64,000 bases of DNA, taken from assembly GCA_900545015.1 (NCBI GenBank), contig UQXJ01000003.1:15800-79799 (forward strand), written 5' to 3'. The stretch comes from an uncultured Mollicutes bacterium. Its GTDB lineage: Bacteria; Bacillota_I; Bacilli_A; RFN20; CAG-826. The position numbers and the translations under genes were made by a program. Position 1 is the first letter of the stretch, and each line of letters begins with the position of its first letter. Below, piece after piece: positions 26,933 to 48,353 of the stretch. Under the pieces are notes generated by a model. It made no database searches. It saw only the letters and a list, made by a program, of their open reading frames with translations, and was not told the DNA's origin.

Positions 26933-26957
26933 AAGTGGTGCTTTTGCACCACTTTTC
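26933..26957 (+). terminator. post-oppA hairpin AAGTGGTGC-tttt-GCACCACTT + TT
   Basis: Perfect 9-bp stem between oppA and oppB. Probably a partial terminator. Confidence 0.6.
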
Positions 26958-27046
26958 ATTTATAATAAATTAGGTTTTTAGCGCAATTTTTTGTTGTCAA
27001 AAAGTTGGCTAATGCTAAAATATTCATTACGTTTAAGGAGAAAAGT

Positions 27047-28102: not shown

Positions 28103-30359
28103 TAAAAAAGAATATGTTTATAGAGATAGTTCCCAAGTAGAACACAGCATTGAGATCTCCTCAAATGATTTTAATTTAGCTCAAAAAAGTGAAGGAATTC
28201 ACGATCAAAAATTTAAAACAAAGCCTACAACATTCTTAAAGGACGCTTTTAGAAGATTTAGAAAGAATAAAAGTAGTGTTGCTGGAGCAATTATTTTAGG
28301 TTCTTTATTACTTTTAAGTATTGTTTTGCCTTTAGCAATTCCTTATAACGTCGACGCTTCTAATCCACATCCTGAAGAAACATTATTAGCACCTAAATTG
28401 TTTAATACTGGTACAGGGTTTTGGGATGGAACCGAAAAGAAGACAAATATTCCAGTTGATCCAAGTAGAAAAGTAACATTTGAAGGTGTTGATTATTATT
28501 ATCCTTTTGAATCATCATACCCAAGTAGAGCAGTTAGTAATTTAACTCCTGCTAGAGGTGGCTATGTAAATATTTTTACTCAAAGTGCTACAGGTGGTTT
28601 CTTATCACTTGTTAATGATAAAATAGTTGAATCAAATGAAACTGAAAAGCTTGAAGAAAATGCTGCAATCTTTGGCTCACCATCATTTAATTATGCACTT
28701 AGACTAAATACATACGATTTAAGTTTTGCTGTTGCTAATGATGATTTTTCAAATGAATTACAACAAGGAAGTTCTAATGCTGATGGAAAAGGCTACTCAA
28801 AAGCTAAATTTAAAGTTTATTTTACATATAGTGTACCTTCAGTTAGCACAACAGAAACATTTGAATATGTTTTAAAAGATTATGAAGATGAAAATTTAAC
28901 TAACGCTACAACTGCTGAAGTTGAAGACAAATATGGTGAACAAGTTTTAAGCACAAATAGTATTACAACTTATAACTTTGAAAATGTATTTGAAGGTCTT
29001 AAAACAAAAGAAATTACTTATAAACACGAAGTAGAAGGTGTTGAAAAAGAGGAAACTTTTAAACCTTTTGAAAAGGGTATAAATGATCTTAATTTAAAAG
29101 TTAGTATTCTTCCAAATTCGAATAATTACACTTATTTAATGCTTAAAAATGTAACATTAACTTCTAGTGATAAAACTGAAAATAATAAACTTACTAAAAT
29201 TAGCTTTGCTGATGGTGTTAGTGATCTTAAAAAAGATTCTAGCCAAAAAGATTATTATTGGACATTTACAGGAAGAAGAGAATTATTCCATGGTATTGGC
29301 TTAGTTGCTGATTTTACATTTGATACATATGCAGTTCCTTATGGAATTCAAATTAAAAATGTTGGTTCAACATTAATTGAAACTTACATTAAAAACGGCT
29401 GGTTATCATTAACTAATAATCCAGAAATTACATCAGCTTCAACTGATGAAGATATTAAAAATGCAGTCGCAAAGACTTTAGATAAAGGTTATAAATTAAC
29501 TAGACAAAAAGAAATTAATGCTTTATTTAAAGTTGAAGAAAAATGTCCTATCTATCCTTATGCTGAAGGAAATGAACAAAGTGGTATTACTAAAATTAGT
29601 AGAAGTTCACACGATGATATTACAGTTTATAATTTAAGTTGTTATGTCTATGGATATAAATTCTTAGGCTATGATTCAATGCCATCATATTTTGTTGGCA
29701 CTGATGCTCAAGGATTTGATTTACTTAAATCTACATTCGTTGGTTTAAGAAATTCATTAATGCTTGGTCTTTTAACTTTCGCAATTTGCTTCTCATTCGG
29801 TCTTGTTTGGGGTGCTGTTAGTGGATACTTTGGTGGCGCAACAGATATTATCATGCAAAGATTTACTGATATTTTAAGTGGTGTTCCATGGATTGTTATC
29901 ATGACACTTTGTATTTTAAATATGGGAAGTGGATTTGGAACATTCATTCTTGCTATGTGTTTAACTGGCTGGATTGGTACAGCAAGTTTAACTCGTACAC
30001 AATTCTATAGATTTAGAGATAGAGAATATACTCTTGCTAGTAGAACACTTGGCGCAAGCGATTTCAGATTAATCTTTAAACATATTTTGCCTAACGCAAT
30101 GGGTACAATTATTACATCATCAGTTTTAATGATTCCTAGTGTTATTTTCTCAGAAGCAACAATTTCCTATTTAGGTCTTGGCTTCCAAAGTATGAAATCA
30201 TTAGGTGTTATCCTTTCTAAAAACCAAGGTTTCTTATCAACTTATCCATATTTAATCTTATTCCCTTCGATTATTATGGCTTTAATTATGATTAGTTTTA
30301 ACTTATTTGGTAACGGATTGAGAGATGCATTCAATCCATCATTAAAGGGGAGTGAATAA
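28095..30359 (+). CDS. oppC: oligopeptide ABC permease OppC with about 440-aa extracytoplasmic insert
   Basis: ATG 28095 overlaps the oppB stop. TM1 at aa about 65-85, a long non-TM segment, then the canonical core (GTDAQGFDLL...ASRTLGAS...LRDAFNP). Confidence 0.9.
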   Translation: MDNKKEYVYRDSSQVEHSIEISSNDFNLAQKSEGIHDQKFKTKPTTFLKDAFRRFRKNKSSVAGAIILGSLLLLSIVLPLAIPYNVDASNPHPEETLLAPKLFNTGTGFWDGTEKKTNIPVDPSRKVTFEGVDYYYPFESSYPSRAVSNLTPARGGYVNIFTQSATGGFLSLVNDKIVESNETEKLEENAAIFGSPSFNYALRLNTYDLSFAVANDDFSNELQQGSSNADGKGYSKAKFKVYFTYSVPSVSTTETFEYVLKDYEDENLTNATTAEVEDKYGEQVLSTNSITTYNFENVFEGLKTKEITYKHEVEGVEKEETFKPFEKGINDLNLKVSILPNSNNYTYLMLKNVTLTSSDKTENNKLTKISFADGVSDLKKDSSQKDYYWTFTGRRELFHGIGLVADFTFDTYAVPYGIQIKNVGSTLIETYIKNGWLSLTNNPEITSASTDEDIKNAVAKTLDKGYKLTRQKEINALFKVEEKCPIYPYAEGNEQSGITKISRSSHDDITVYNLSCYVYGYKFLGYDSMPSYFVGTDAQGFDLLKSTFVGLRNSLMLGLLTFAICFSFGLVWGAVSGYFGGATDIIMQRFTDILSGVPWIVIMTLCILNMGSGFGTFILAMCLTGWIGTASLTRTQFYRFRDREYTLASRTLGASDFRLIFKHILPNAMGTIITSSVLMIPSVIFSEATISYLGLGFQSMKSLGVILSKNQGFLSTYPYLILFPSIIMALIMISFNLFGNGLRDAFNPSLKGSE

Positions 30360-30360
30360 T

Positions 30361-33300
30361 ATGAAAGAAATGAAAACAAATATCGATTATACAAATACTC
30401 CTAAAGTTCTCGAAGTAAATAACTTAAGAGTTAACTTTAAAAGTGATAGTGGATTAGTTTATGCAGTTAGAGGAGTTTCCTTTGATTTATATAAAGGAGA
30501 AACTCTTTGTATTGTTGGTGAATCTGGTTCAGGTAAATCCGTTACTAGTAAAACAATTATGGGTATTTTAGCTAATAATGCTATTATCGAAAGTGGACAA
30601 ATTTTATACGAAGGTGAAGATTTAGTTAGAATCAGTGAAGAAGAATTCCATAGAATTAGAGGAAACAAAATTGGAATGATTTTCCAAGATCCTCTTTCTT
30701 CATTAAACCCAATTGTTAAAATTGGTAAACAAATTACCGAAGCTACATTAATCAACAAAAACATTTTGAAGAAACATTATAGTGATTTAATTTCTAAGCA
30801 ACTTGTTGCTTTAAGAAATAATGATGCTAATAAAATTTACGAATTTAATAAAATTAGTAATGAAATTGAAAAGATTGATTCATACATTAAAGATTTAAAT
30901 GATAAGAAGAATCCTGTTTCACTTGAAAAAAGAAGTGAAATTGATGAATTCATTCATTTATTTAAGAAAGAAAACGATGATAATCTTTCTAAACTTCATG
31001 AAGATGTTAGACTTGCTAATGAAGAAGATACTTTTGAAAACAAATATCAAGAAGTATTAATCAAAGAAAAGAAATTAAATTTATTAGTTCTTAAAGAAGA
31101 AATCTTTAATAAATTTAAAGTAGTAGTTGAAAATATTCCAGTTGATCAAGTTGAAGCTTTAAATAAACGTAAAGAATATCTTGCTGAATTTAAAAAATAT
31201 ATAGATAGAGAAAATAAAGAATTAAAACCTCTTTATAAAAAAGCATTAGCTTCTAGAAAGAAAGATGCTGCTGTTGAAAACAAAAAATATGCAGCTGAAT
31301 TAAAAGAAACTGCTGATAAAAAGTTAAGTGAACTTCAAGTTGAACTTGACAAAGTTAATTCTTTAATTTCAAACGTTTTACCTTCATTAAGTGAAGAAGA
31401 GAAGAAAAACTATGATGAAATTTTAGCAAGAATTGAACCTAAAAAAGTTAATCCAATTGTTAAATTCTTTAAAAAGGAAAAACAAGAAGAAATTAATATT
31501 TCTAAGATTAGTAAAAAAGATGAAATCGTTACTAAAACTGGAAATGAAAAAATGGATAAACTTCTTTCTAAAAAAGAAGAAATAGAAACTAAGATTGAAG
31601 AAGTAAAAGATGAATATATTAATTCAACTAAAGTAACTAAAAAAGAAGCTAGAAAAATGGCTCTTCAAGTTATGAAAGAAGTTGGTATTCCTCTTCCTGA
31701 AAAACGTTTTAAACAATATCCATTTGAATTTTCAGGTGGTATGAGACAACGTATCGTCATCGCAATTGCTTTAACTGCAAATCCAGACATTTTAATTTGC
31801 GATGAACCTACAACTGCACTTGATGTTACTATTCAAGCTCAAATTCTTGAATTAATTAATAAATTAAAACGTGAAAGAGGACTTTCATGTATCTTTATTA
31901 CTCACGATTTAGGTGTTGTTGCGAACATGGCTGATAGAGTTGCAGTTATGTATGCTGGTAAAATTGTTGAATATGGTACAAGTTATGAAATTTTCTATAA
32001 CCCAAAACATCCATATACTTGGGCACTTTTATCATCAATTCCTGATTTAGATAGTAAAGAAAAACTTGAAGCAATTCCTGGAACTCCACCAGATATGCGT
32101 TTCCCTCCTAAAGGTGATGCATTCGCTTTAAGAAGTAAATATGCTTTAGACATTGATTTTAAATATGAACCACCATACTTTAAAGTTAGTGATACACATT
32201 ATGCTGCAACTTGGTTACTCCATGAAGATGCACCAAAAGTTGACATGCCAAAAATTGTTAAAACACGTATTGCTAATTCAATTAAAGCATACGAAGATGG
32301 AAATCATGATGACAACCAATTAAAATCACTTCCTGAAGAATCATTCAATTTTGTTGAAGAAGTAATGAACGCAAACGCTAAAGAAGCTTTAATGAAAACA
32401 AGCATGAAAGCTTATCAAGATTATGAATCTGGAAATATTAGTGTTTCTAAAGATATTTTAAATACTGAAGTTCATAATAGTGATTTTAAAGATGAACTAG
32501 AATTTATTGATCAAGATAACGTTGAAGATGAAATTTCAAATATTAAATCAAAATGCAAATTCAAAGAAGAATATGCTGAAGAAAAAACAATTTTAAGTGT
32601 TAATCACCTTAAACAATACTTCTTCTTTGGAAAAGGACCAAATAGATATAAATTAAAAGCAGTCCATGATGTATCTTTTAAAGTCAAGGAAGGTGAATGC
32701 TTTGGTATCGTTGGTGAATCTGGCTGTGGTAAAACTACAACAGGTCGTTCAATTATTAGACTTTATCACATTACTAGTGGCTCTATTTACTATAAAGGTT
32801 ATAGAATTGGTGCTGGTAGTAGATGGAATGAAAAAGAAATTAAATATACTAAGATTAGATACAACGCTCTTGAAAAAGAATTAAAAGCAAAGCTTGCTAA
32901 AAACGAAATTACAAAAGAAGAATTTGCTACAAAGTTAGAAGAAGCTAGAGAACATAAAAACAATATTGTTAGTGTTCAAAAAGCTAAAATTAATCAAATT
33001 AAATATGATGACAAGCATGTTAATAAGAAATTATTAAGTGAAATTCAAATGATCTTCCAAGATCCAATTGATTCACTTGACCCTCGTATGACTGTTGAGG
33101 ACATTATTCAAGAGGGCTTAATTATTCAAGGCCATAAAAATAGAGCTGAAAACCATAAGAAGGTTGTCCAAGTTCTTGAAAAAGTTGGATTAATTGCAGA
33201 TTACTGTAACAGATATCCACATGAATTCTCTGGTGGACAAAGACAAAGAATTGGTATTGCTCGTGCTCTTGTCATGAATCCTAAATTATTAATTTGTGAT

Positions 33301-34227
33301 GAACCAATTTCTGCTCTTGATGTTTCTATTCGTGCTCAAATTATTAATTTACTTAATGATTTAAAAGAAGAAATGGGCTTAACAATTATGTTTATCGCTC
33401 ATGATTTATCAGTAGTTAAATATTTCTGCGATAGAATTGCTGTTATGTATTTTGGTGAAATTGTTGAACTTGCAACTGCTGATGAACTCTTCAGACATCC
33501 ACTTCACCCTTATACAAAATCACTTTTAAGTGCTATTCCAAAACCAAATCCTTTAACTGAAAAAGATAGAGTTAGAATTCCTTATAATCCACGTGAAGCA
33601 CATGATTATAGTGTTGATAAACCATCATTTGTTGAGATTGAACCAGGACACTTTGTATTAGCAAATAAAGCTGAAGTTGAGAAATATAAAGCTGAAATGG
33701 TTGAACTCGATAAGAAAGCTGAATACGAAAAAGAAGAATTATTCAAAGGCGATGAAACAATTAACGAAGTAACTGAAGAAACTAAAGTTGAAGAAGTTAT
33801 TAATGAAGAAAAAATTTCTGCAAAAGAAGTTGCTGAAGAAAAAACTTCTGATGAAAAAACAGCCGATGAAAAGACAAGTGAATCAACTGAGGAAAAAACT
33901 TCTGAAGAAACTTCAAAAGAAGAACCTAAAAATTCTATTGAAGAAGCTGAAGAAGAAAAAGAAGAAACACAAGATAGATCTTCTAAAAAAGAACCTTCTG
34001 AGACTTTATTAAAGCAAAGAAGTGGTGAAATTAAAAAAGTCTACCATCTTAAAAAAGTTGATGGCAGATGGGAATTAATTCTTAAAGAAGGAATGAAAGT
34101 TATAAAAACTTTCCCAACTAAACAAGAAGCTTTAGTTTATAGCAAGAAATTAGTTGAGTCTCAAAATGGAACACTTCTAGTTCATGCTTCAAAAGGCAAA
34201 AACAAAGGAAAATTCATTAAAGAATAA
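30361..34227 (+). CDS. oppDF: fused OppD-OppF double ATPase with acidic repeat tail and C-terminal DUF2188-like domain (about 1288 aa)
   Basis: Two complete NBDs in one frame. NBD1: GESGSGKS...FSGGMRQR...CDEPTTALD. NBD2: GESGCGKT...FSGGQRQR...CDEPISALD. These are collinear with the separate oppD and oppF of module 2. The tail is (D/E)EKT(S/A) repeats followed by KKVYHLKKVDGRWELILKEG..FPTKQEALVYSKKL..LLVHASKGK. Confidence 0.9.
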   Translation: MKEMKTNIDYTNTPKVLEVNNLRVNFKSDSGLVYAVRGVSFDLYKGETLCIVGESGSGKSVTSKTIMGILANNAIIESGQILYEGEDLVRISEEEFHRIRGNKIGMIFQDPLSSLNPIVKIGKQITEATLINKNILKKHYSDLISKQLVALRNNDANKIYEFNKISNEIEKIDSYIKDLNDKKNPVSLEKRSEIDEFIHLFKKENDDNLSKLHEDVRLANEEDTFENKYQEVLIKEKKLNLLVLKEEIFNKFKVVVENIPVDQVEALNKRKEYLAEFKKYIDRENKELKPLYKKALASRKKDAAVENKKYAAELKETADKKLSELQVELDKVNSLISNVLPSLSEEEKKNYDEILARIEPKKVNPIVKFFKKEKQEEINISKISKKDEIVTKTGNEKMDKLLSKKEEIETKIEEVKDEYINSTKVTKKEARKMALQVMKEVGIPLPEKRFKQYPFEFSGGMRQRIVIAIALTANPDILICDEPTTALDVTIQAQILELINKLKRERGLSCIFITHDLGVVANMADRVAVMYAGKIVEYGTSYEIFYNPKHPYTWALLSSIPDLDSKEKLEAIPGTPPDMRFPPKGDAFALRSKYALDIDFKYEPPYFKVSDTHYAATWLLHEDAPKVDMPKIVKTRIANSIKAYEDGNHDDNQLKSLPEESFNFVEEVMNANAKEALMKTSMKAYQDYESGNISVSKDILNTEVHNSDFKDELEFIDQDNVEDEISNIKSKCKFKEEYAEEKTILSVNHLKQYFFFGKGPNRYKLKAVHDVSFKVKEGECFGIVGESGCGKTTTGRSIIRLYHITSGSIYYKGYRIGAGSRWNEKEIKYTKIRYNALEKELKAKLAKNEITKEEFATKLEEAREHKNNIVSVQKAKINQIKYDDKHVNKKLLSEIQMIFQDPIDSLDPRMTVEDIIQEGLIIQGHKNRAENHKKVVQVLEKVGLIADYCNRYPHEFSGGQRQRIGIARALVMNPKLLICDEPISALDVSIRAQIINLLNDLKEEMGLTIMFIAHDLSVVKYFCDRIAVMYFGEIVELATADELFRHPLHPYTKSLLSAIPKPNPLTEKDRVRIPYNPREAHDYSVDKPSFVEIEPGHFVLANKAEVEKYKAEMVELDKKAEYEKEELFKGDETINEVTEETKVEEVINEEKISAKEVAEEKTSDEKTADEKTSESTEEKTSEETSKEEPKNSIEEAEEEKEETQDRSSKKEPSETLLKQRSGEIKKVYHLKKVDGRWELILKEGMKVIKTFPTKQEALVYSKKLVESQNGTLLVHASKGKNKGKFIKE

Positions 34228-34235
34228 ACAAAATT

Positions 34236-34266
34236 AAGGTGAGAACGAAAAACTCACCTTTTTTCT
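34236..34266 (+). terminator. rho-independent terminator of opp module 1
   Basis: AAGGTGAG-aacgaaaaa-CTCACCTT followed by TTTTT. Confidence 0.8.
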
Positions 34267-34322
34267 TACTTAAAAATAGATTGTTAATGTATTTTTTCTT
34301 ATTTAATGATAAATTAATACCC

Positions 34323-34739
34323 ATGGAAGAGAAAAAGAAGAAAAAAATAAAGTTAAAAGATATTTTTAATTTGTATTTTTGGATTAAATTTGCTGTTGGT
34401 ATTGGAAGCAGCGGATTATTATTTATTTTAATTTATGCGATTAATGGATTTACACCTATTTGGCTAATTAACAGTCTTTTTGTAGCGACAATTTTTTCTT
34501 TATCATTAGCAGCCCTTTCTTTTGCAACTAATGTAGGAACATTTGATGTTATTTCGCTTGGTTTTAAAAATATGTTCTTAATGGCTAAAAAGGAAGTAGA
34601 CGAGAAATACGACCTTTTTCAATACAGAGAAATGAAGTCTATGAAAAGAAAAGTGGAAAGATTTTCATTTTTAGGCTACTTATTTTCATTCTTAATTTTT
34701 CTAACTATCTATTTATCATTTTATTTTACTATTTATTGA
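34323..34739 (+). CDS. small multi-TM protein, DUF3899-like (138 aa)
   Basis: Start taken at ATG 34323 (MEEKKKKKIKL), because the track's 34239 start lies inside the terminator hairpin. Has the GTFDVISLGFKNMF motif. Paralog of 23391-23831. Confidence 0.6.
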   Translation: MEEKKKKKIKLKDIFNLYFWIKFAVGIGSSGLLFILIYAINGFTPIWLINSLFVATIFSLSLAALSFATNVGTFDVISLGFKNMFLMAKKEVDEKYDLFQYREMKSMKRKVERFSFLGYLFSFLIFLTIYLSFYFTIY

Positions 34740-34879: not shown

Positions 34880-37800
34880 ATGAAACTAAACAAAAAGAAA
34901 TTATTATTAAACGTATTATCTCTTGCTTCATTAATTGCCGTTGTATCATCATGTGGAAATAAGAAACCAGACGGTCCTAGTGACGATAAAGATAACGATG
35001 TTGCTTTAGATAAACCAAATCAAACAATTACATTATCAAGTGAATTTACTAAAACAGCTGAAGATAGTACTTATTTCAGTGCACAATTAGTAAGAGATGG
35101 TGGAGAAAACCCAACATATGTTACTTCAAAGCAGACTGCTTTATTAAAAGCTGGTGAAAGTGTTCATTTATATGCTTTCGATATTCCTAAAGGCTATACA
35201 ACAGGTGTTACTGTACTTGATGCAGCAGGAGAACTTTCAAAAGATTTAGTTGTTAGTAGTGATGGAACTGTTACTGCTCCTAGTGTCACACAAAAAACTG
35301 AATTTACATTAATTTTGTTTGGCGTCTCTGCTGATGAAAAACAAGTAATTAAACAAGATATCGATGTTACTGTTGTACCTACTGAATCATTTGTTTCAGA
35401 TGGATATTTAGATCTTACTGGCGTAACAGGCACAGAAAAAACTAAGATGGCAGCATCAGTTGAAAGATACCTTTATAACAAAGGACTTGCTCCAATTACT
35501 TATATGAATGATGAATCTTATTCATTATATAACGAAAGATTAAGCACACCATTCTTAGATTCAGGTAATTATGTTGCTGGTTATGGCTATGGATTATTAG
35601 ATTATGGTTCAGTTACAGCTCCACTTGCTGGTGAAAAAACTGATAAATATAAAAATTATTTGCATGATCAAGTTGACGCAACATATGATGAAGGTAACTT
35701 TAACTATTTGAACTCAAATTCAAATTCAGTTTCTACATTCTATAGTTATGTATCTCAATATTATTTCTCAAATCTAGTTAATGAAACAAGTGATGGTTGG
35801 GAATATCAAGCACAATTATCAAGAAAGAAAGCTCCAGAAGCTGTAAATCCTGATGAAAATGGTGCTTCAGATACATGGAAAGTTTATTTAAGAGTTGGGG
35901 CTGATGTTGACAATGCAGTTGGTGGAACAAAAGGTTTAGCTTATAGAACTGCATCACAAACATTCAAATCTTTTGATAAACGTAATATTAAATTAGAAGA
36001 TTACCTTACTACATTTAAACTTTTAGCAACTCAATCAGTTGGCTGGTATAGAGGTGCTGAACAAGCAGGCGAAAAAACACAAAATAGACAAGTTAAAGGT
36101 TTTGCTGAATTCTATAACGCTTCAAAAGATGCAAAAACATTACCAAGCGATGAAGAATTTATGAAGCAAGTTGGAGTTAAAATTGATCCAAGTGATAACT
36201 CAATTTCTATTACATTTAATGGAAAAATCACACCTGATTATGCTGAATATCAACTTAACGGATTATGGTGTAACCCAATGTGCGAAGAATTCGTCAAACA
36301 ACTTGGCGAAGGCAATGTAATTAAAGGCGCTCAAGCTTATGGAACTAGCGCAACAGTTGCTGGAAAATCATTAACACCATTAGATACATTATTATCTGTT
36401 GGACCATACTATACAGCAACATATGAAAGTAAAAAGACTATCGCATTTGCTAAAAACGAAGATTGGCCAATTAGGAAAGATGATTCAGGAAGAGATTTAT
36501 TTAAACTTGAAGGTATCCACTTAAATGTTAACAGTGCATTAACTACAGATCCTAAAGAATTATTAAATAAATTCACACGTAACGAAACTGATACATCAAA
36601 TATTCCAGAAACTGAATGGGATAAATATGCTACAGATCCACGTAGAAAGAAAAATGGTGCTGAATCTAATTTCTGTTACTTTGTTAATACATGGGATAAA
36701 GCATTCTACGATCAACAATTTGGTGGTGAATGGGAAGTTAAACCAATGTTGTCAAATACAAACTTCTTCAAAGGATTAGAAGTTGGTATCAATAGAAAAG
36801 ATATTTCTGAAGCTTTCCACAAAGGTCCAGGATTTGAAATTCAAGAACCTGTTAATAAGATTTCTCCAAAATCAGATAAAGCATATAACGATACTGATGA
36901 ACACAAAGCAGTTATGAAAGAAGTATTCGGAAATGCATTTGATAGCGAACAATTAGCTAACTGGAAAACAAATGCAGCAGAATATTTCCAAGCAGCTATT
37001 AAAGAAGAACTTGATGCAGGTCACTATAAATTAGGTAAAAAAGGTGCTGCAACTGTAGTTTCAATGAAACTTGCAAGAATTCAAGGTGCTGAAACAGCTA
37101 ACAAACGTTTATCAATGGTTGCTGAAAGCTGGGAACAAGCATTTGATCTTGCTGTTAAATCATATGTTGATAAAGATGGCAAAACTCCTTGGGTAGCCGA
37201 AGATGGTAGTGCTTTAATTACATTTAAAGTTGAATATGAAGATATTGCTAATTCATCTAACCAACAAATGCAAGCTGACGTCTTATTTAATGGTGTTAAG
37301 GCTGGTAGATTTGATGGACAAACAATTTACTTTGTTAGTGGTAATGGACTTGATTCGTTAAATAACTTCGATAAATTTAAATCAAATGACTCAAGCGGAT
37401 TCACACTTAACTTTGGTGCAGATACTTCAATTCCTTCAGTTGATGTTGAATATGATGGAAAATACTATTCATTTGACTCGTTATGGGGCGCAGCAAATAC
37501 AACTGCATTCGTTGATAAAAATGGTATTCAAGTTTCAGAATTCAGTGTAAACGATGCTTATGTTGAGCCTACCTATAAAGATGGCAAATACACTGTCGAA
37601 TTAGAAGTAAGCTACTTAGAAAAATATATTAGTGATATTAAAGTTGCAGTTGATACAATTAATGCGAAAGGTGTTGAAGCTTATAAAGAACTTGATGCTA
37701 AAGTTGTTGATGGAAAGATTACTATCGTATTTGAAGGCGATGCTATCATTGACGGTGCGCTACTTGGACCAGATTACGCAAGTGCTAACTACCTTGACTT

Positions 37801-37891
37801 CCAATTTACATATAAAAAGACTGTAAATGGTGTTGAAAGTGAAGGAACATACGGTGGCTACTGGCTACTCGAGAAACCTAGTGCAAATTAA
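34880..37891 (+). CDS. oppA: oligopeptide ABC substrate-binding lipoprotein, second copy (1003 aa)
   Basis: RBS GGAGGAGG. Lipobox VSSC. N-terminal Ig-like segment. SBP core alignable to OppA1 (..LEDY.T...LL..Q.VG..R.A.., SLWGAAN/SLWTAAN). Confidence 0.85.
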   Translation: MKLNKKKLLLNVLSLASLIAVVSSCGNKKPDGPSDDKDNDVALDKPNQTITLSSEFTKTAEDSTYFSAQLVRDGGENPTYVTSKQTALLKAGESVHLYAFDIPKGYTTGVTVLDAAGELSKDLVVSSDGTVTAPSVTQKTEFTLILFGVSADEKQVIKQDIDVTVVPTESFVSDGYLDLTGVTGTEKTKMAASVERYLYNKGLAPITYMNDESYSLYNERLSTPFLDSGNYVAGYGYGLLDYGSVTAPLAGEKTDKYKNYLHDQVDATYDEGNFNYLNSNSNSVSTFYSYVSQYYFSNLVNETSDGWEYQAQLSRKKAPEAVNPDENGASDTWKVYLRVGADVDNAVGGTKGLAYRTASQTFKSFDKRNIKLEDYLTTFKLLATQSVGWYRGAEQAGEKTQNRQVKGFAEFYNASKDAKTLPSDEEFMKQVGVKIDPSDNSISITFNGKITPDYAEYQLNGLWCNPMCEEFVKQLGEGNVIKGAQAYGTSATVAGKSLTPLDTLLSVGPYYTATYESKKTIAFAKNEDWPIRKDDSGRDLFKLEGIHLNVNSALTTDPKELLNKFTRNETDTSNIPETEWDKYATDPRRKKNGAESNFCYFVNTWDKAFYDQQFGGEWEVKPMLSNTNFFKGLEVGINRKDISEAFHKGPGFEIQEPVNKISPKSDKAYNDTDEHKAVMKEVFGNAFDSEQLANWKTNAAEYFQAAIKEELDAGHYKLGKKGAATVVSMKLARIQGAETANKRLSMVAESWEQAFDLAVKSYVDKDGKTPWVAEDGSALITFKVEYEDIANSSNQQMQADVLFNGVKAGRFDGQTIYFVSGNGLDSLNNFDKFKSNDSSGFTLNFGADTSIPSVDVEYDGKYYSFDSLWGAANTTAFVDKNGIQVSEFSVNDAYVEPTYKDGKYTVELEVSYLEKYISDIKVAVDTINAKGVEAYKELDAKVVDGKITIVFEGDAIIDGALLGPDYASANYLDFQFTYKKTVNGVESEGTYGGYWLLEKPSAN

Positions 37892-37917
37892 TCATATTTA
37901 ATTTAAAATTGAAATAT

Positions 37918-37949
37918 ACCCTAGAAAATTAAACTTCTAGGGTTTATTT
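37918..37949 (+). terminator. post-oppA hairpin ACCCTAGAA/TTCTAGGGT + TTATTT
   Basis: Perfect 9-bp stem between oppA2 and oppB2. Confidence 0.6.
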
Positions 37950-37970
37950 CGCTATATAAAAGGAGGAATT

Positions 37971-39017
37971 ATGACTAAATATGTAATAAAAAGAATATTA
38001 TTAGTCTTTCTCACAGCATTTATAGTTTTATCATTAACTTATATTCTCTTGTGTTGTTTGAAAGTTGATCTTCCATTTTTTACATCAGAAGGTCAAAAAG
38101 TCGCTTATTTGACTAATCAATGGCAAAAAGGATTTTTAGTAAGAGAAACGATGCCAACTGAAAAGTATGGTGAATTATTTGGTTCTTATACTGTTGGAAG
38201 TGGCGTTAGCCAAGTAACTTATTACTACTATCAAAGACCTATCATGGATAGATATTTTAGTTTTCTCCAAGGTGTATTCACTCGTTGGGATTGGGGTACA
38301 TCAATTGGATTTGAAGTTGGGAGACCTACAATAGATATCCTTATGTCTCGTTTACCTACAACAATTTTAATTAATATTATAAGTGTTATATTTTCTGTTC
38401 CCTTAGGAATTGGCTTAGGCATATGGTGCGCTCTAAAAAAAGACTCAGTATTTGATAATGTCATGCAAGTCTTAATGATGGTTGTTATTTCAATTCCAAG
38501 CTTTGTTTTAATTAGCTATCTCATCATGATGGCAGCAAATATTTCTTGGATACCAACATTCTGGCCACAATCAACTGATCCATTATATTTAAGAGTTGGT
38601 GCCTTTGTTGTTCCAGTTTTGGCTTTATCACTTGGCTCAATATTTGGTTATGCTAGATTTGTTAGAGCAGAACTTTGTGAAGTTTTAGAAAGTGATTATT
38701 TATTACTTGCAAGAACAAAAGGCTTAACAAGACGTCAATCAATTTTACGTCACGCTTTAAGAAATTCAATGGTGCCTGTTTTGCCAATGGTTGTTAGTGA
38801 ATTTATTTCAATTCTTGGAGGAAGTATGATTCTTGAGAACTTATACCAAATTCCAGGTGTTGGACAACTTTATATGGCAGCATTTAATGCAAAAGACTAT
38901 TCATTACTTATGACAGATATGGCTTTTTACACATTAATTGGATTACTTGCTGCAATCGTCGTTGATTTATCATATGGATTTATCGATCCACGTATTAGAA
39001 TGGGGGCAAAGAAATAG
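37971..39017 (+). CDS. oppB: oligopeptide ABC permease OppB (copy 2)
   Basis: RBS AAAGGAGG. Paralog of 27047-28102 (YLLLARTKGLTRRQ.I.RHALRN.MVP, DPRIRMGAK). Confidence 0.92.
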   Translation: MTKYVIKRILLVFLTAFIVLSLTYILLCCLKVDLPFFTSEGQKVAYLTNQWQKGFLVRETMPTEKYGELFGSYTVGSGVSQVTYYYYQRPIMDRYFSFLQGVFTRWDWGTSIGFEVGRPTIDILMSRLPTTILINIISVIFSVPLGIGLGIWCALKKDSVFDNVMQVLMMVVISIPSFVLISYLIMMAANISWIPTFWPQSTDPLYLRVGAFVVPVLALSLGSIFGYARFVRAELCEVLESDYLLLARTKGLTRRQSILRHALRNSMVPVLPMVVSEFISILGGSMILENLYQIPGVGQLYMAAFNAKDYSLLMTDMAFYTLIGLLAAIVVDLSYGFIDPRIRMGAKK

Positions 39018-39019
39018 TT

Positions 39020-41014
39020 ATGGAAGAAAAAAATAAAATTAATGAAGTAATTATTGATGGCGAAGGTCATGAAATTACTTATAACGAAAATGACTTTGAC
39101 TTTGTCCAAAGTGACACATCAATTCACGATTTAAAACTTAAATCAAAACCAACAACTTTCTTAAAAGACGCAATTCGTAGGTTTTTTAAATCAAAATCTG
39201 CAATTGTTGGTTTTTCAATTGTTGGCATCTTATTCCTTGGTTCACTTATAATCCCGCTTTGTACTCCAGATCAAGGCGTCTTTAATGTTGATAAAGATGG
39301 TGGAGGATCAAGTAGCGAATTTAATCTTGTTCCTAAATTATTCAATGCGGGTTCAGGATTCTGGGATGGTACAGTTAAAAGAACAAAAATTCTTTACGAT
39401 AAAGAAAATGAAGTACCAGTTGGATATAGAGAAGGAACTTTCTTTAACTTAAAATCATATGAAGAAGAAGCAAGTGGCATTTTCAGTACATATGCTAGTG
39501 GTGGTTACTTAAATGTATATCAAACAAATAGCGAAAAAGATGCAAATTATTATTCACCTTTGATCGACTTTGATTTTACAAATAATTATTCATTAAGCTA
39601 CAACTTACTCGATGAAGCATATGGCAATTATGAATTTACAGGAATTAAAGTTTCATTATTTGATGGAAATAATCATTATTATCTTGTTGGTAAAAACAAC
39701 TTTTCAAAAGATTTAAATGTAAATATTAACATCAATGAAACTTTAACTAATAATGGTTATGATTTATCTACAATATCAAAAGCAAAAATCTATTTTGATA
39801 TTCAAAAATCAGATAATACAAAAACAGGGAATGTCTTTATTAAAGATTGCTTAATTTCAAGTAATAATAGTGAAGAAAAAGAAACTTTAGATGCTATCAG
39901 CTTTAAAGATGGCAATGAAGTTATGTGTAGAGAAGCTGGAACAAGCAACGCTTGGGCTGGTGATTTTGGTAAAACTACATACAAAATAACTGTTCCATAT
40001 TGCGATTTTACATTTGATATGTACGAATCAGTTTATGGACTTGTTGACAAAACATATGGTTATCTTGAACTTCAAGTTTTTGCTTCAAAAGGTGGTATGA
40101 AAATTAATTTTTCTTCTACGGATTATAAGGCAACAGCAGATAAAGAAGTTTTAAAGAATAGATTCCAAATTTTAGATGAAAATGAATGTCCAATCGCTGA
40201 AGTTGTAGAACAAGTTGGCGATGCAACATATAATTCATCAACAAAAAGATGGACTGGATATTCATTAAAAGTAAAAATCGAAAATTATAAAGTTCTTGGA
40301 TATTCATCAATGCCAAGATATATCTTTGGAACAAACGGCTCTGGTAAAGATTATCTTAAATTAATGTTTAAAGGATTAAGATTCTCATTACTTTTAGCAA
40401 TTGGTGTTAGCTTTGTTAATATTGTAATTGGTCTTATCTGGGGTTCAATTTCTGGATATTTTGGTGGATGGACAGATATTATTATGGAAAGAATCTGTGA
40501 TATTATCAGTGGCCTTCCAACAATGGTTATTATTACTTTATGTATTCTTTATGGTAGAGAATTAAACTGGGGTAGCTTAAGCGATGTCTTAGCTTTAATG
40601 ATTTCATTATTTATGACAGGATGGATGGGAGTTAGTGCTAGAACTAGAACTCAATTCTATCGTTATAAAGGAAGAGAATATATTTTAGCTAGTAGAACTT
40701 TAGGCGCAAAAGATGGTCGATTAATCTTCAAACATATTTTACCTAACTCAGCAGGAACAATTATTACTTCATCAGTCTTAATGATTCCTAGCGTAATTTA
40801 TACTGAAGCTAGTATTGCATATCTTGGATTAGGTTTACAAAATCAAGTATTATTTGGTGTCGTTTTAAGTGAAGCGAGCACATATTATAGTGGTGAAAAG
40901 AGCTATTTATTACTTATTCCTACCGTTGTTATGATGTTCTTACTTGTTTCATTTAACTTATTCGGAAACGGATTAAGAGATGCATTTAACCCACAACTTA
41001 AAGGAGGAGAATAA
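39020..41014 (+). CDS. oppC: oligopeptide ABC permease OppC (copy 2) with about 350-aa extracytoplasmic insert
   Basis: Same architecture as 28095-30359. Conserved LVPKLFNAGSGFWDGT at the start of the insert and a canonical C-terminal core. Confidence 0.9.
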   Translation: MEEKNKINEVIIDGEGHEITYNENDFDFVQSDTSIHDLKLKSKPTTFLKDAIRRFFKSKSAIVGFSIVGILFLGSLIIPLCTPDQGVFNVDKDGGGSSSEFNLVPKLFNAGSGFWDGTVKRTKILYDKENEVPVGYREGTFFNLKSYEEEASGIFSTYASGGYLNVYQTNSEKDANYYSPLIDFDFTNNYSLSYNLLDEAYGNYEFTGIKVSLFDGNNHYYLVGKNNFSKDLNVNININETLTNNGYDLSTISKAKIYFDIQKSDNTKTGNVFIKDCLISSNNSEEKETLDAISFKDGNEVMCREAGTSNAWAGDFGKTTYKITVPYCDFTFDMYESVYGLVDKTYGYLELQVFASKGGMKINFSSTDYKATADKEVLKNRFQILDENECPIAEVVEQVGDATYNSSTKRWTGYSLKVKIENYKVLGYSSMPRYIFGTNGSGKDYLKLMFKGLRFSLLLAIGVSFVNIVIGLIWGSISGYFGGWTDIIMERICDIISGLPTMVIITLCILYGRELNWGSLSDVLALMISLFMTGWMGVSARTRTQFYRYKGREYILASRTLGAKDGRLIFKHILPNSAGTIITSSVLMIPSVIYTEASIAYLGLGLQNQVLFGVVLSEASTYYSGEKSYLLLIPTVVMMFLLVSFNLFGNGLRDAFNPQLKGGE

Positions 41015-41016
41015 AA

Positions 41017-42999
41017 ATGGAAGAAAAAGTATTATCAGTAAATGATTTACATGTCTCCTTTAAGACAGATAGAGGAATTGTAAAAGCTGTTAGAGGAGTT
41101 TCATTTGATCTTTATAAAGGTGAAACTCTTTGTATTGTTGGCGAATCTGGTTCAGGAAAATCAGTTACTAACAAAGCAATCATGGGAATAAGTGCAAAAA
41201 ATGCAATTATTGAAAGCGGCTCAATTCTTTATGAAGGTGAAGATTTAACTAAAGTTAGTGAAGAAGAATTCCATCGTATTAGAGGACATAAAATTGGAAT
41301 GATTTTCCAAGACCCTTTAAGTGCTTTAAATCCTGTTATGAAAATAGGGAAGCAAATCACTGAAGCAACTCTTGTTAATAGAAATATTTTAAAGAGAAGA
41401 TATGAAGAATTAATCGCTAACGATTTAATTCGCTATAGAAATAATTTTTCAAACACTGAATTCAATATAAATAAGCTCGAATCCTATATTGAGCAAAACG
41501 AAAAAACTATTAAGAAATTTGGCGAATTAAGTAAAAAAGTTTCAAAAATTGATAAGAAATTAGCTAATCCTGATTTACAAGGTGAAAAATCAATTGAACT
41601 TAATGACTTAAAGGCTAATTTAGAAAATGAAATTGCTGACTTAGTTTCATCGAATGTTGATTTCTATGATTTCTTAATGAAAGACAAAACAAATGAAATC
41701 GATTCTTTAAAAGACAAGTTAGAAAAATTATCTAAGAAAACTTTTGACAACGAAGTTTATAAAAACATTAATGACGATGAAATTAAATTTATCAATGATC
41801 TTCTTGAATTCTATAAAAAAGATTTCGTTGTCTTTAAAAAAGATAATGTTTCTGACTCTTTAAAAGTTCAAAATGAAATTTTTAAAGAATTAATTAAGGT
41901 TTATAAACTTAGTTGTAAAGCTAAAAAACAAAATTTAAAGGTAGCTTTAAATAATAAGAAAAAAGAAGCAAAAGCTGAAGTTGATAAATATTATTTAGAA
42001 ATTAAAAAAGTTCATGATGACAAAATGACCGAATTAAATACTGAACTTTTAAAAATTGAAGAAAAAATGAAAAGCGTTTTATCTTCATTATCAGAAGATG
42101 AACGCAACGAACTTTTAAGTGATATCAAATTCAATAAAGTTTTAAAAGAAAAAGAGAAAAAGTTCAATAAAAAAACTAAAGAAATGAATCTTTCTAAAGT
42201 TACAAAAAGGGAAGTAAATTATAAAGAATTAAAAAATCATGAATATGCTGAACTTTTAAAAGAAAAAGAAGCACTTGAAATAAAAATAGAAGAAGAAAAA
42301 GCTGATTTTGTTAATAAAACTAAAGTAACAAAAGCAGAAGCTAAAAAGATGGCTTTAGAAGTTATGAAAGAAGTCGGCATTCCTCTTCCTGAAAAACGTT
42401 TTAAGCAATATCCATTTGAATTTTCAGGTGGTATGAGACAACGTATCGTCATTGCAATTGCTTTAACCGCAAATCCAGATATTTTAATTTGTGATGAACC
42501 TACAACTGCACTTGATGTTACAATTCAAGCTCAAATTCTTGATTTAATTAATAAATTAAAAGAAGAACGTCACTTAAGCTGTATCTTTATTACTCACGAT
42601 TTGGGCGTTGTTGCTCATATGGCTGATAGAGTTGCTGTAATGTATGCTGGAAGAATTGTAGAATATGGAAAAGTTGATGAAATATTCTATGAACCTAAAC
42701 ATCCATATACTTGGGCACTTTTATCATCAATTCCTGATATTAATAGTAAAGAAAAACTTGAAGCAATCCCTGGAACACCTCCAGATATGTTATTCCCTCC
42801 AAAAGGCGATGCGTTTGCTTTAAGAAGTAAATATGCAATGGCTATTGATTTTAAATATCAACCACCATTCTTTAATGTTAGCGATACTCACTATGCTGCA
42901 ACTTGGCTGTTAGCTAAAGGCGCACCAAGTGTAAAAATGCCAGCGATTGTTGAAAAGAGAATTGAAGAAGCTAAAAAGCGTATGAAGGAGGAAAAATAG
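41017..42999 (+). CDS. oppD: oligopeptide ABC ATPase OppD with about 300-aa K/E-rich insert (660 aa)
   Basis: Walker A GESGSGKS, Q-loop MIFQDP, signature FSGGMRQR, Walker B ICDEPTTALD. A charged heptad-like insert lies between the Q-loop region and the signature. Confidence 0.93.
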   Translation: MEEKVLSVNDLHVSFKTDRGIVKAVRGVSFDLYKGETLCIVGESGSGKSVTNKAIMGISAKNAIIESGSILYEGEDLTKVSEEEFHRIRGHKIGMIFQDPLSALNPVMKIGKQITEATLVNRNILKRRYEELIANDLIRYRNNFSNTEFNINKLESYIEQNEKTIKKFGELSKKVSKIDKKLANPDLQGEKSIELNDLKANLENEIADLVSSNVDFYDFLMKDKTNEIDSLKDKLEKLSKKTFDNEVYKNINDDEIKFINDLLEFYKKDFVVFKKDNVSDSLKVQNEIFKELIKVYKLSCKAKKQNLKVALNNKKKEAKAEVDKYYLEIKKVHDDKMTELNTELLKIEEKMKSVLSSLSEDERNELLSDIKFNKVLKEKEKKFNKKTKEMNLSKVTKREVNYKELKNHEYAELLKEKEALEIKIEEEKADFVNKTKVTKAEAKKMALEVMKEVGIPLPEKRFKQYPFEFSGGMRQRIVIAIALTANPDILICDEPTTALDVTIQAQILDLINKLKEERHLSCIFITHDLGVVAHMADRVAVMYAGRIVEYGKVDEIFYEPKHPYTWALLSSIPDINSKEKLEAIPGTPPDMLFPPKGDAFALRSKYAMAIDFKYQPPFFNVSDTHYAATWLLAKGAPSVKMPAIVEKRIEEAKKRMKEEK

Positions 43000-43000
43000 T

Positions 43001-44365
43001 ATGAAAGAAAACAATAAAAAAGATGAAAAAATATTTTTCCAAGATGATAAGACTTATGTAGCTCAAGATGCAAATCTCTTTAAAGGTGATGAAAACGATT
43101 CTGTTGAACATCCTGTAACAAGCGCTGATGAAATCGCAAAAGAAGAAAAAGCCACTGAAGAGGAAGCTTTAGAATCTATTCGTCATAAATGCAAATTTAA
43201 AGAAGAATATGTTCAAGAAAAAGCAATTTTAAGTGTCAATCACTTAAAACAATATTTCTTCTTTGGAAAAGGACCAACAAAATATAAATTAAAAGCTGTT
43301 CATGATGTTTCATTTAAAGTTTATGAAGGTGAAACATTTGGTATTGTTGGAGAATCTGGTTGTGGTAAAACAACAACTGGACGTTCAATTATTAGATTAT
43401 ATGACATCACAAGTGGTTCAATTTATTATAAAGGCCAAAGAATTGCTGCTGGTAGTAGATGGAATGAAAAAGAAATTAAATACACTTTAATTCGTAAGAA
43501 TAAAATTTTAAAAGAATTAAAAGAATCTTTTAAAAAAGGTGAAATTGATGAAGCAACATATAATGCTAAAAAAGAAGAAGCAATTAAACATGCTAATGAA
43601 ATTGTTAAAGTTCAAAAAGAAAAAATTAAGCAAATTAAGCATGATGATAAACATGTCGATCCTAAATTATTAAGAGAAATTCAAATGATCTTCCAAGATC
43701 CAATTGATTCTCTTGATCCTAGAATGACTGTTGAAAGTATTATTAGTGAAGGATTGCAAATTCAAGGCTTTAAAAATAAAAAAGAAAATCATAAGAAAGT
43801 AGTTGAAGCTTTAGAAAGAGTTGGCTTAATTGAAGATTATGCTAATCGTTATCCACATGAATTCTCTGGTGGACAAAGACAAAGAATTGGCATTGCTCGT
43901 GCACTAATTATGAATCCTAAATTATTGATTTGTGATGAACCAATTTCTGCACTTGATGTCTCGATTCGTGCTCAAATTATTAATTTACTTGATGATTTAA
44001 AGAAAGAAATTGGCCTTTCAATTATATTTATTGCTCATGACCTTTCTGTTGTTAAATATTTCTGCGATAGAATTGCTGTTATGTATTTTGGTGAAATTGT
44101 TGAGCTTGCAACAAGTGATGAATTATTTAAGCATCCACTTCACCCTTATACAAAATCACTTCTGAGTGCAATTCCTCTTCCAAATCCAGAACTTGAAAAG
44201 AAGAGAAAGAGAATTATTTATAATCCAGAAGAAGCACATGACTATAGTAAAGAAAAACCAAGAATGGTTGAAATCTTGCCTGGCCATTTCATCTTAGCAA
44301 ATACTGAAGAAATTGCTAAATATAAGGAAGAAATTAAAGAATTAGACCTTACTAATGTAAAATAG
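43001..44365 (+). CDS. oppF: oligopeptide ABC ATPase OppF (454 aa)
   Basis: GESGCGKTT, QMIFQDP, FSGGQRQR, ICDEPISALD. About 90-aa N-terminal extension and about 65-aa insert after Walker A. Confidence 0.93.
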   Translation: MKENNKKDEKIFFQDDKTYVAQDANLFKGDENDSVEHPVTSADEIAKEEKATEEEALESIRHKCKFKEEYVQEKAILSVNHLKQYFFFGKGPTKYKLKAVHDVSFKVYEGETFGIVGESGCGKTTTGRSIIRLYDITSGSIYYKGQRIAAGSRWNEKEIKYTLIRKNKILKELKESFKKGEIDEATYNAKKEEAIKHANEIVKVQKEKIKQIKHDDKHVDPKLLREIQMIFQDPIDSLDPRMTVESIISEGLQIQGFKNKKENHKKVVEALERVGLIEDYANRYPHEFSGGQRQRIGIARALIMNPKLLICDEPISALDVSIRAQIINLLDDLKKEIGLSIIFIAHDLSVVKYFCDRIAVMYFGEIVELATSDELFKHPLHPYTKSLLSAIPLPNPELEKKRKRIIYNPEEAHDYSKEKPRMVEILPGHFILANTEEIAKYKEEIKELDLTNVK

Positions 44366-47400: not shown

Positions 47401-47455
47401 GTACTAAAAAAGTACTAATAATCTACTAATAAACTACTAGATATGTACTAAAATT
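47401..47455. repeat. 5 x 11-bp phased tandem repeat, core (G/C)TACTA(A/G)
   Basis: Cores start at 47401, 47412, 47423, 47434 and 47445, exactly 11 bp apart. Lies in the gap between convergent genes. Confidence 0.9.
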
Positions 47456-48185: not shown

Positions 48186-48269
48186 GGCAAATATTATAAA
48201 ACTTCAAAAATAAAATAAGCATATTTCTTTGTTTATAGATTAAAAAAATAATGCCATAATAATACGGAT

Positions 48270-48353
48270 GAATCAGTGGCGGAATGGTAGACGCGTTAGT
48301 TTCAGAAGCTAATGAAGAAATTCATGCAAGTTCAAGTCTTGTCTGGTTCACCA
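48270..48353 (+). tRNA. tRNA-Leu (anticodon CAG), class II with long variable arm, CCA encoded
   Basis: Acceptor GAATCAG/CTGGTTC. D arm GTGGCGGAATGGTAGACGC. Anticodon stem TTAGT/GCTAA with loop TTCAGAA. Variable arm TGAAGAAATTCATG. T arm GCAAG-TTCAAGT-CTTGT. Ends ACCA. Confidence 0.9.

Follow-up and report, generated by a model that had tools for sequence, protein, structure and literature searches.

Comparison with described importers

Single-chain ATPases of the oligopeptide (Opp) type are known among the ATP-binding cassette (ABC) importers. GsiA of the E. coli glutathione importer and YejF of the microcin C importer each join two Opp-type nucleotide-binding domains (NBDs) and their oligo_HPY regions in one chain of 530-620 aa, and each serves an OppB/OppC-type permease pair. 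The OppD and OppF proteins of Mollicutes are separate reference points, with charged insertions in the NBDs, an N-terminal extension on OppF, and an operon that includes a large lipoprotein OppA. An extra C-terminal domain on the cytoplasmic side of the NBD is found in other importer ATPases, including the regulatory domain of MalK, the C2/ACT domain of MetN, the TOBE domain of ModC, and the tandem CBS domains of OpuAA. Here we describe a gene, oppDF (30361..34227, + strand), located on a 64,000-nt stretch of contig UQXJ01000003.1 (positions 15,800 to 79,799; assembly GCA_900545015.1) from an uncultured Mollicutes bacterium; this whole stretch is referred to as the window. The gene encodes an OppD-like and an OppF-like ATPase in a single chain that continues through an acidic linker into a C-terminal DUF2188 domain (hereafter the tail).

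When compared with GsiA and YejF, the window protein was found to have the same two Opp-type NBDs with oligo_HPY in one chain and likewise to serve an OppB/OppC-type permease pair; however, it is ~1290 aa in length with large Mollicutes-type insertions in both NBDs, and GsiA and YejF are without a C-terminal domain tethered by an intrinsically disordered region. The NCBIfam models of GsiA (532.8 bits, cutoff 1077) and YejF (474 bits, cutoff 834) both align along the window protein. The charged NBD insertions, OppF N-terminal extension, and large lipoprotein OppA operon are shared with the Mollicutes systems, from which the window differs in scoring below the equivalog cutoffs and in having its ATPases fused and DUF2188-tailed; in addition, the organism is not a Mycoplasma, as it uses TGA as a stop. 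The position of the tail matches that of the MalK, MetN, ModC, and OpuAA domains and would allow transport to be coupled to cell state. Those domains abut the NBD and join the dimer, whereas the window tail is separated from its NBD by a variable acidic linker of ~108 aa, differs from them in fold (DUF2188, beta-beta-beta-alpha-beta-beta), and belongs to a family that also occurs free and on unrelated membrane proteins. Stand-alone DUF2188 proteins such as MMSYN1_0080 of JCVI-syn3.0 and RPA3313 (PDB 5JN6) are of the same Pfam family, but the window tail is tethered to an ATPase and has an acidic linker in place of their basic N-terminal extension. As fused Opp-family ATPases are already known (GsiA, YejF), the D-F fusion per se is unremarkable; it is the tail that is the new part of the architecture. 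No description of an Opp ATPase with DUF2188 was found in the literature, and none of the 13 papers found to mention DUF2188 is about transporters. The parts of the gene and its flanking signals are as follows.

30361..34227, + strand: whole gene, single-chain OppD-OppF ATPase plus acidic linker plus DUF2188 tail; 1288 aa, then a TAA stop (open reading frame [ORF] list, translation, Pfam, homologues)
30345..30352, + strand: Shine-Dalgarno-like AAGGGGAG, 8 nt ahead of the ATG at 30361 and within the end of oppC1 (read from the sequence)
30361..32271, + strand: OppD-like NBD1 with oligo_HPY C-terminal region (Pfam ABC_tran, oligo_HPY at residues 539-599; NCBIfam)
30772..31641, + strand: charged NBD1 insertion, ~290 aa, between the Q-loop region and the signature motif (alignment)
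32272..32562, + strand: inter-NBD linker, 97 aa (aa 641-737), former OppD C-terminus plus native OppF N-terminal extension
32563..33711, + strand: OppF-like NBD2 with oligo_HPY (Pfam; NCBIfam MMSYN1_0168 OppF and PRK15079 OppF)
32857..33036, + strand: helical NBD2 insertion, aa 836-895 (alignment columns 875-1010; length varies between homologues)
33712..34035, + strand: acidic low-complexity linker, 108 aa, net charge -18, with EEKT/DEKT repeats (composition)
34036..34224, + strand: DUF2188 (PF09954) domain, 63 aa, net charge +9, at the extreme C-terminus (Pfam, AlphaFold2 [AF2], identity)
34236..34267, + strand: terminator-like hairpin, AAGGTGAG-9-nt loop-CTCACCTT followed by TTTTCTT, 9 nt past the stop codon

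Conservation of the fused and tailed architecture

A homologue search that covered 5.8 billion proteins was used to place the window protein. About 48 clusters of 1249-1382 aa, 61-98% identical to it and derived from many assemblies, were found to have the same domain order including the tail. Of the 48 tail-bearing clusters, all except three have a PF09954 record, and in two of the exceptions (P0001 and P0043) the tail sequence is visible in the alignment. The nearest cluster, P0001, is 98% identical and has 26 members, each seen on up to 4 contigs. About a dozen further homologues (P0049-P0060; 1045-1192 aa) are fused and without the tail. The mean pairwise identity of the individual regions, computed over 13 aligned proteins that carry the tail, was as follows.

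NBD cores: 0.90-0.94
OppD insertion: 0.45, compared with 0.90-0.94 in the flanking core
Inter-NBD linker: 0.46
OppF insertion: 0.38
Acidic linker: 0.20
DUF2188 tail: 0.76

The conserved domain thus sits behind a linker that runs free, a pattern which argues that the tail is under selection, unlike a read-through accident. This evidence also bears on whether the fusion or the tail might be an artefact, arising from a chimeric assembly, a frameshift, or an overlooked stop, or else a recent accident without function. The data are metagenome-derived, and a single stop splits oppD from oppF in relatives, such that a one-base error could mimic a fusion. Nonetheless, the original prediction of OppD and OppF in one uninterrupted frame was verified by ORF analysis, translation, and Pfam, and the frame across the junction was open not only in the window but also (i) in the 26-member cluster at 98% identity, on several contigs; (ii) in dozens of remoter homologues, that is, in ~48 clusters down to 61% identity from many samples; and (iii) in the loci L001, L090, and L094. 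The 76% conservation of the tail against 20% for the linker, a short motif that precedes the domain and is kept despite synonymous codon changes, and the terminator-like hairpin after the stop codon likewise speak against such an origin, which we consider extremely improbable; an assembly or frameshift artefact in particular was ruled out by a frame common to many independent assemblies. Overall, the anatomy of the gene and its conservation are regarded as very nearly certain.

The uninterrupted ORF spans 30352..34227 (+ strand), with 1291 codons when counted from a GTG. The true start is likely the ATG at 30361, which gives 1288 aa, is backed by the spacing of AAGGGGAG, and agrees with the gene limits of 30361-34227 originally predicted; homologue P0001 begins MKEMKTN at the equivalent ATG in the alignment. 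The window has a G+C content of ~29%, and TGA is the terminating codon of 4 of its 39 long ORFs. As TGA acts as a stop in the window, table 11 is the right code; table-4 (Mycoplasma) decoding was ruled out by these TGA-terminated ORFs, with none of the 39 needing TGA read-through. The hairpin at 34236..34267 has an RNA folding energy (dG) of -10.1 kcal/mol (z -3.2) and was missed by a consensus terminator scan because its loop exceeds 8 nt. Since this hairpin is positioned just past the stop codon, the gene is taken as the end of operon 1.

Intact ATPase motifs in both halves

Both halves of the protein were found to retain the full set of ATPase motifs. These include (i) in half 1, Walker A GESGSGKS, signature FSGGMRQR, Walker B ILICDEPTTALD, and H-loop THD; and (ii) in half 2, Walker A GESGCGKT, signature FSGGQRQR, Walker B LLICDEPISALD, and H-loop AHD. 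The motif sets of both NBDs were invariant in an alignment across 17 homologues. Pfam detected ABC_tran (PF00005; E-value 8.6e-56) in four stretches of the protein and oligo_HPY (PF08352; 87.7 bits) in two stretches, one after each NBD. The best NCBIfam model for the OppD half was NF043079 (MMSYN1_0167 OppD) at 666.9 bits, compared with an equivalog cutoff of 740, and that for the OppF half was NF043078 (MMSYN1_0168 OppF) at 578.1 bits, compared with a cutoff of 800. The OppD half is 58% identical to OppD2 of a second, paralogous opp operon in the window (module 2), and the OppF core is 80% identical to the OppF2 core. By its motifs and domain matches, the gene was shown to encode the complete ATPase motor of the module-1 oligopeptide importer OppA1-B1-C1, for which peptide transport is predicted.

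Judged by alignment, the charged insertion in NBD1 is typical of Mollicutes-type OppD, and OppD2 has an insertion comparable to it. The insertion in NBD2 is the best-predicted stretch of a 559-aa AF2 model of the OppF half plus tail, in which it forms a long helical hairpin with a predicted local distance difference test score (pLDDT) of ~90. We also observed that the NBD2 insertion is ~70 residues longer in P0041, P0042, P0045, and P0046, and that the ~290-aa charged insertion of NBD1 occupies the place equivalent to the helical insertion of NBD2.

Origin of the OppD-OppF fusion

The original prediction had noted a linker of about 95 aa between the two NBDs. This linker is present at 97 aa; however, it is not new sequence. 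In the split relatives L002 and L006, the OppD C-terminus followed by the N-terminal extension of unfused OppF aligns colinearly with it, and the unfused OppF2 carries the same extension (~75 aa). Related genomes were then surveyed for fused versus split oppDF and for the presence of the tail. The survey was based on our own ORF and BLAST analysis of 80 loci, one genome per species, from metagenome-assembled genomes of uncultured gut and rumen Bacilli, 'Mollicutes', Acholeplasmatales, Anaeroplasmataceae, Erysipelotrichaceae, and Izemoplasma, with DUF2188 sought within 10 kb. In 79 of the 80 species-representative loci oppD and oppF were separate genes, and none of these 79 split loci had a DUF2188 within 10 kb. 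The fused and tailed form was found only in L001 (uncultured Bacilli bacterium BRZ_SL__bin15).

In six of the split relatives (L002-L007), oppD and oppF were found to lie in one frame with a single stop codon between them. The translated junctions of L002 (11993-11998) and L006 have the oppF ATG directly after the stop, e.g., '...SKEEE*MSEKKK...'. The loss of one stop codon would therefore suffice to create the OppD-OppF fusion, and the comparison of these junctions with the open frame of the window shows the NBDs to have been joined by stop-codon loss at an in-frame oppD-stop/oppF-ATG junction. Because oppD and oppF are still separate genes in the nearest relatives, with a stop codon in frame at the junction, and the scores against GsiA and YejF fall far below the equivalog cutoffs, the fusion is recent and arose independently of those proteins. 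In L002-L007 the fusion is one substitution away, and stop-codon read-through could already yield some fused protein.

A DUF2188 gene that once lay downstream and was swallowed by oppF was considered as a source of the tail and rejected: the tailless fused relatives have no DUF2188-like gene downstream, nor does any split relative within 10 kb.

The C-terminal domain belongs to DUF2188

The proposal that the C-terminus resembles DUF2188 was borne out by profile search, in which PF09954 matched the 88-aa tail alone at 30.0 bits (E-value 5.8e-7; cutoff 22) and residues 1236-1284 of the full protein at 22.2 bits (cutoff 22). An AF2 model of the tail, built with 17 sequences, had a pLDDT of 86.9 and the order beta-beta-beta-alpha-beta-beta (strands 7-13, 16-21, and 26-31; helix 34-47; strands 51-55 and 65-67). 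By comparison of models, this fold agrees with the three-strand-plus-helix core described for DUF2188 (PMC13621843). The HASKGKNKGKF loop of the tail is invariant or nearly so, and the protein ends 3-4 residues past the last strand of the domain. Searches for relatives of known structure returned little. Foldseek of the tail model against the PDB gave nothing below an E-value of 0.1, with top matches that were mostly RNase H-like folds, and its only matches in BFVD were small phage proteins without names. Searches of PDB sequences with phmmer and two profiles produced matches at chance level. The solved DUF2188 member 5JN6 was not recovered by phmmer, by the two profiles, or among the top 50 Foldseek PDB matches.

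The tail might alternatively be an immunity or antitoxin-like module, similar to the N-terminal domain of HicB, that neutralises or senses a toxin or phage factor and is merely parked at the membrane by the transporter. The DUF2188 family (MMSYN1_0080) has been tied to HicB N-terminal domains by an HHpred network and by fold, and assigned a simplified RNase H-like fold (PMC13621843). Furthermore, the tail and P0153 match the PADLOC model PDC-S16 (E-values of 1.9e-6 and 2.9e-9, respectively), a weak match to a system that is itself only a candidate, and phrog_3220 and small uncharacterised phage proteins share sequence or fold with the tail. Among the PDB matches, none significant and the best mostly RNase H-like, the HicB-like antitoxin 3k6q appeared only at rank 39. 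These structural and PADLOC similarities are all weak or to candidate systems. The C-terminal DNA-binding domain of HicB (ribbon-helix-helix or helix-turn-helix) is absent. A scan of the window ORFs of at least 100 aa (smaller ORFs were not scanned) revealed no HicA-like or other toxin gene, nor was one found beside the stand-alone DUF2188 copies, which lie in housekeeping operons. The window locus itself is a nutrient-uptake operon. An antitoxin-like role is considered very unlikely.

The acidic linker

The acidic repeat segment that had been pointed out ahead of the tail was confirmed by Tandem Repeats Finder, which detected a 15-nt unit repeated three times at 33832-33876 (ADEKT-type) and, within 33766-33974, further short arrays with units of 9 and 12 nt. 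Among homologues the length of this linker ranges from ~30 to 200 aa. Its last ~10 residues (SETLLKQRSGE) are conserved and predicted to be helical, and the SETLLKQR motif is preserved at the protein level through synonymous codon changes. In the 559-aa AF2 model the linker (aa 1127-1215) had a pLDDT of 22-31 and no secondary structure, compared with 64-86 for the tail; the linker is predicted by this modelling to be disordered.

An internal translation start that would release a free DUF2188 protein was also examined and rejected, as the 75 nt before the domain contain no in-frame ATG, GTG, or TTG and no consistent Shine-Dalgarno sequence.

Relatives of the tail occur free, on OppF, and on membrane proteins

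Relatives of the tail were sought by an exhaustive phmmer search over 1.84 billion representatives, which gave 320 hits; classes were counted in the best 150. These best 150 included 79 membrane proteins that end in DUF2188, 51 stand-alone proteins, and one OppF.

Stand-alone proteins of 72-100 aa from related bacteria are 71-81% identical to the tail and have the same invariant residues and HASKGKNKGKF loop. Their N-termini are Lys-rich and basic, and their genes are not near opp. The nearest stand-alone group (60-75% identity) was found ~27 nt after yebC/TACO1 in nine metagenome loci (L095-L100, L102, L106, and L107), in five of which yqeY comes next; contigs retrieved by exact-protein look-up again had the order yebC-DUF2188-yqeY. 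A second group (~50% identity) was positioned 15 nt after frr within tsf-pyrH-frr-X-uppS-cdsA-dxr, also in nine loci (L143, L144, L148, L154, L157, L161 [655-1446], L165, L168, and L169). RRF recycles ribosomes. YebC has been established as a translation factor that associates with ribosomes (PMC12234827, PMC11990639). DUF2188 does not appear in the supplements of the YebC RNA-interactome paper. In 10 other loci (L109, L111, L112, L115, L119, L128, L150, L153, L156, and L158), a stand-alone DUF2188 gene was observed ~130 nt downstream of a gene for a membrane-anchored Endonuclease_1 plus Big_2 protein, an association that is of a different kind and related to nucleic acids.

The tail was also found on unfused OppF, in P0172 (685 aa, Pfam), L093, L101, and the second opp module of L090, a locus whose first opp module is of the fused, tailed form. 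Since DUF2188 also sits on unfused OppF, the presence of the tail is independent of the fusion.

The 79 membrane proteins have 1-10 predicted transmembrane (TM) segments, most at least three, and a median of zero residues after DUF2188. Their linkers have a median length of 92.5 aa and a median net charge of -12.5 (negative in 68 of 78), and their DUF2188 domains have a median charge of +10. Examples include P0173, P0174, and P0182, which have the same C-terminal design as the window protein with an integral membrane domain, not an ABC ATPase, as the anchor, and the loci L108, L152, L167, L170, and L172. The membrane part of the DUF2188-ending proteins had no Pfam match, and no description of membrane-anchored DUF2188 proteins was found in the literature. 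By its domain composition, the window protein is one variant of a recurrent design, in which a membrane-associated anchor is followed by an acidic leash and a terminal basic DUF2188.

Proposed role of the tail

The ATPases of ABC importers are located at the cytoplasmic surface of the membrane, and the tail can thus be placed as a cytoplasmic module that is held near the membrane on a flexible leash. We tentatively read the window protein as a single-chain OppDF motor with DUF2188 as a leashed, membrane-held adaptor, most plausibly for a polyanionic partner, an interpretation that has a reasonable though not a better than even chance of being correct. The transporter would serve, at least partly, as a membrane anchor for the tail, and the basic DUF2188 would bind a polyanionic partner in the cytoplasm. 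This partner could then be held at the membrane, or its occupancy could feed back on peptide import, with the acidic linker acting as a spacer and possibly also as an intramolecular competitor for the basic surface. Binding of a polyanion is the most likely job of the domain because the same subfamily occurs free after yebC and frr, on OppF and OppDF, and on unrelated membrane proteins. The two translation-factor neighbourhoods (yebC and frr) point to ribosomes or RNA as the partner to be preferred, which we nevertheless put forward as a possibility that is on the doubtful side. The more specific proposal that this DUF2188 subfamily is a ribosome- or rRNA-binding module, used by bacteria of this gut Bacilli/Mollicutes-like lineage either free (with frr or yebC) or leashed at the membrane, on OppF/OppDF or on polytopic membrane proteins, as a docking site for ribosomes, is quite unlikely as it stands. 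The paper on the solved DUF2188 structure (5JN6, RPA3313) is said to report co-purification with ribosomal proteins.

The tail might instead be a regulatory sensor of the importer. The OppDF ATPase would then be switched by a signalling protein or by a small molecule, be it a nucleotide second messenger, a peptide, or an amino acid, in analogy to the accessory domains of MalK, MetN, ModC, and OpuA, except that the linker here is flexible. Importer ATPases with an additional C-terminal domain are well established (MalK, MetN, ModC, OpuAA), the tail is attached specifically to OppF, fused and unfused, in several lineages, and the near-invariant HASKGKNKGKF loop could bind phosphate. In addition, DUF2188 genes adjoin those of nucleotide cyclases or cyclic nucleotide-binding proteins in some operons (bioRxiv 10.1101/2022.04.27.489752). 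However, in the known cases the regulatory domain follows the NBD without a gap and forms a dimer below it, whereas here a hypervariable and probably disordered linker of 30-200 aa intervenes. The occurrence of the same domain and linker on many unrelated membrane proteins, and of the domain free, argues for a general and not an Opp-specific function, and module 2 and close fused homologues work without the tail. We therefore consider a sensor unlikely. The tail is, on balance and by a slight degree, probably a tethered adaptor and not a rigid regulatory domain of the MalK/MetN type. The suggestion made at the outset that the C-terminal domain could be regulatory or serve in docking is not contradicted by these results; the hypervariable acidic linker and the recurrence of the design on unrelated membrane proteins lean towards docking or tethering.

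Several observations weigh against the adaptor interpretation. The nature of the binding partner rests on gene neighbourhood, which is circumstantial, and other stand-alone copies adjoin a membrane-anchored Endonuclease_1 protein or a DtxR-like repressor. DUF2188 has been reported in defence islands (bioRxiv 10.1101/2022.04.27.489752; 10.64898/2025.12.03.692087), a HicB-antitoxin-like fold has been argued for it (PMC13621843), and the tail has its weak match to the candidate defence system PDC-S16. None of the matches from the structure searches was significant, and sequence profiles did not reach 5JN6. For the membrane-anchored relatives, the positive-inside rule gave no orientation, because their last TM segment leads directly into the acidic linker. 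The 559-aa AF2 model was poor overall (pLDDT 50.8), and the low pLDDT of the linker is for this reason, when taken alone, weak evidence of disorder. Finally, fused homologues without the tail exist (P0049-P0060). Since OppF2 and these homologues are without DUF2188, the tail appears not to be required for transport itself.

Reduced, auxotrophic gut Bacilli are supplied with amino acids by Opp importers, and the wiring of the importer ATPases to physiology is little known outside model organisms; the gene described here presents an accessory architecture that is new for the motor of an ABC importer. A DUF2188 structure has been solved, JCVI-syn3.0 has one member, and the family turns up repeatedly in defence islands, but no function has been assigned to it. 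Its three contexts (free by translation-factor genes, on Opp, and on membrane proteins) form a 'Rosetta-stone' pattern from which a testable hypothesis follows, namely that DUF2188 is a basic adaptor for ribosomes or nucleic acid that can be parked at the membrane. If docking of ribosomes were true, peptide import, as the amino-acid supply of an auxotroph, would be coupled physically or in a regulatory manner to translation, which would be a new link between transporter and ribosome, and a function would be assigned to a DUF that is kept in the minimal cell JCVI-syn3.0. If the adaptor hypothesis were wrong, the fusion would still mark OppF as a functional partner of DUF2188.

Operon and window context

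The order of genes in this part of the window is Peptidase_S8+PA, DUF3899, oppA1-B1-C1, oppDF with its DUF2188 tail, DUF3899, oppA2-B2-C2-D2-F2, and an amino-acid ABC transporter. The individual features are as follows.

18998-23338: subtilase, ~1450 aa (Peptidase_S8 plus PA domain plus InlB B-repeat), directly upstream of the opp modules
23391-23831 and 34239-34739: DUF3899 small membrane-protein genes, one preceding each oppA; also at 3073-3522 of L090
23910-26903, + strand: oppA1, 997-aa lipoprotein, lipobox LALASC
27005-28102, + strand: oppB1
28026-30359, + strand: oppC1 (Pfam, with BPD_transp_1 and OppC_N upstream of oppDF)
34880..44365, + strand: module 2, paralogous operon oppA2-B2-C2-D2-F2 (ORFs, Pfam)
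34880-37891: oppA2, ~1000-aa lipoprotein, lipobox VVSSC
41017-42999, + strand: oppD2, separate gene
43001-44365, + strand: oppF2, separate gene without DUF2188 tail

The separation of oppD and oppF in module 2, as originally predicted, is borne out by the ORFs and translations. Since a DUF3899 gene precedes each oppA, the duplicated unit is taken to be DUF3899-oppA-B-C-D-F. The second DUF3899 gene probably starts at an ATG near 34320 (MEEKKKKK), because the listed GTG start overlaps the terminator hairpin. The gene order of module 1 is repeated in L088, L089, and L090, and the order S8-DUF3899-oppABC(DF) is conserved in L088 and L090 (subtilase at 1-2723 and 1-2978, respectively). The subtilase and opp genes together look like a cell-envelope proteinase plus peptide-uptake system, a pairing comparable to that of lactococcal PrtP/Opp. 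OppA1 and OppA2 had no significant match to a substrate-binding protein in Pfam or NCBIfam, the OppA of the second module of L090 matches SBP_bac_5, and the two window proteins may represent a very divergent or novel family of substrate-binding proteins.

A perfect 9-bp hairpin, AAGTGGTGC-TTTT-GCACCACTT, was observed at 26933-26954 between oppA1 and oppB1; it might act as a partial terminator and thereby increase OppA expression relative to the other genes of the operon. Past the transporters, 47454-57125 encodes SIR2, Fic/DOC, two AAA_14+DUF4143 ATPases, and an MscS channel, a patch which might be a defence or mobile island. The cumulative GC skew peaks at ~56000-58000, where gene orientation flips from + to -. 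An iron-siderophore-type ABC system (FecCD, ATPase, Peripla_BP_2) with a methyltransferase was detected near the opp locus at 1579-5128 of the window and at 13544-17208 of L088, and its difference in position and orientation between the two indicates a local rearrangement.

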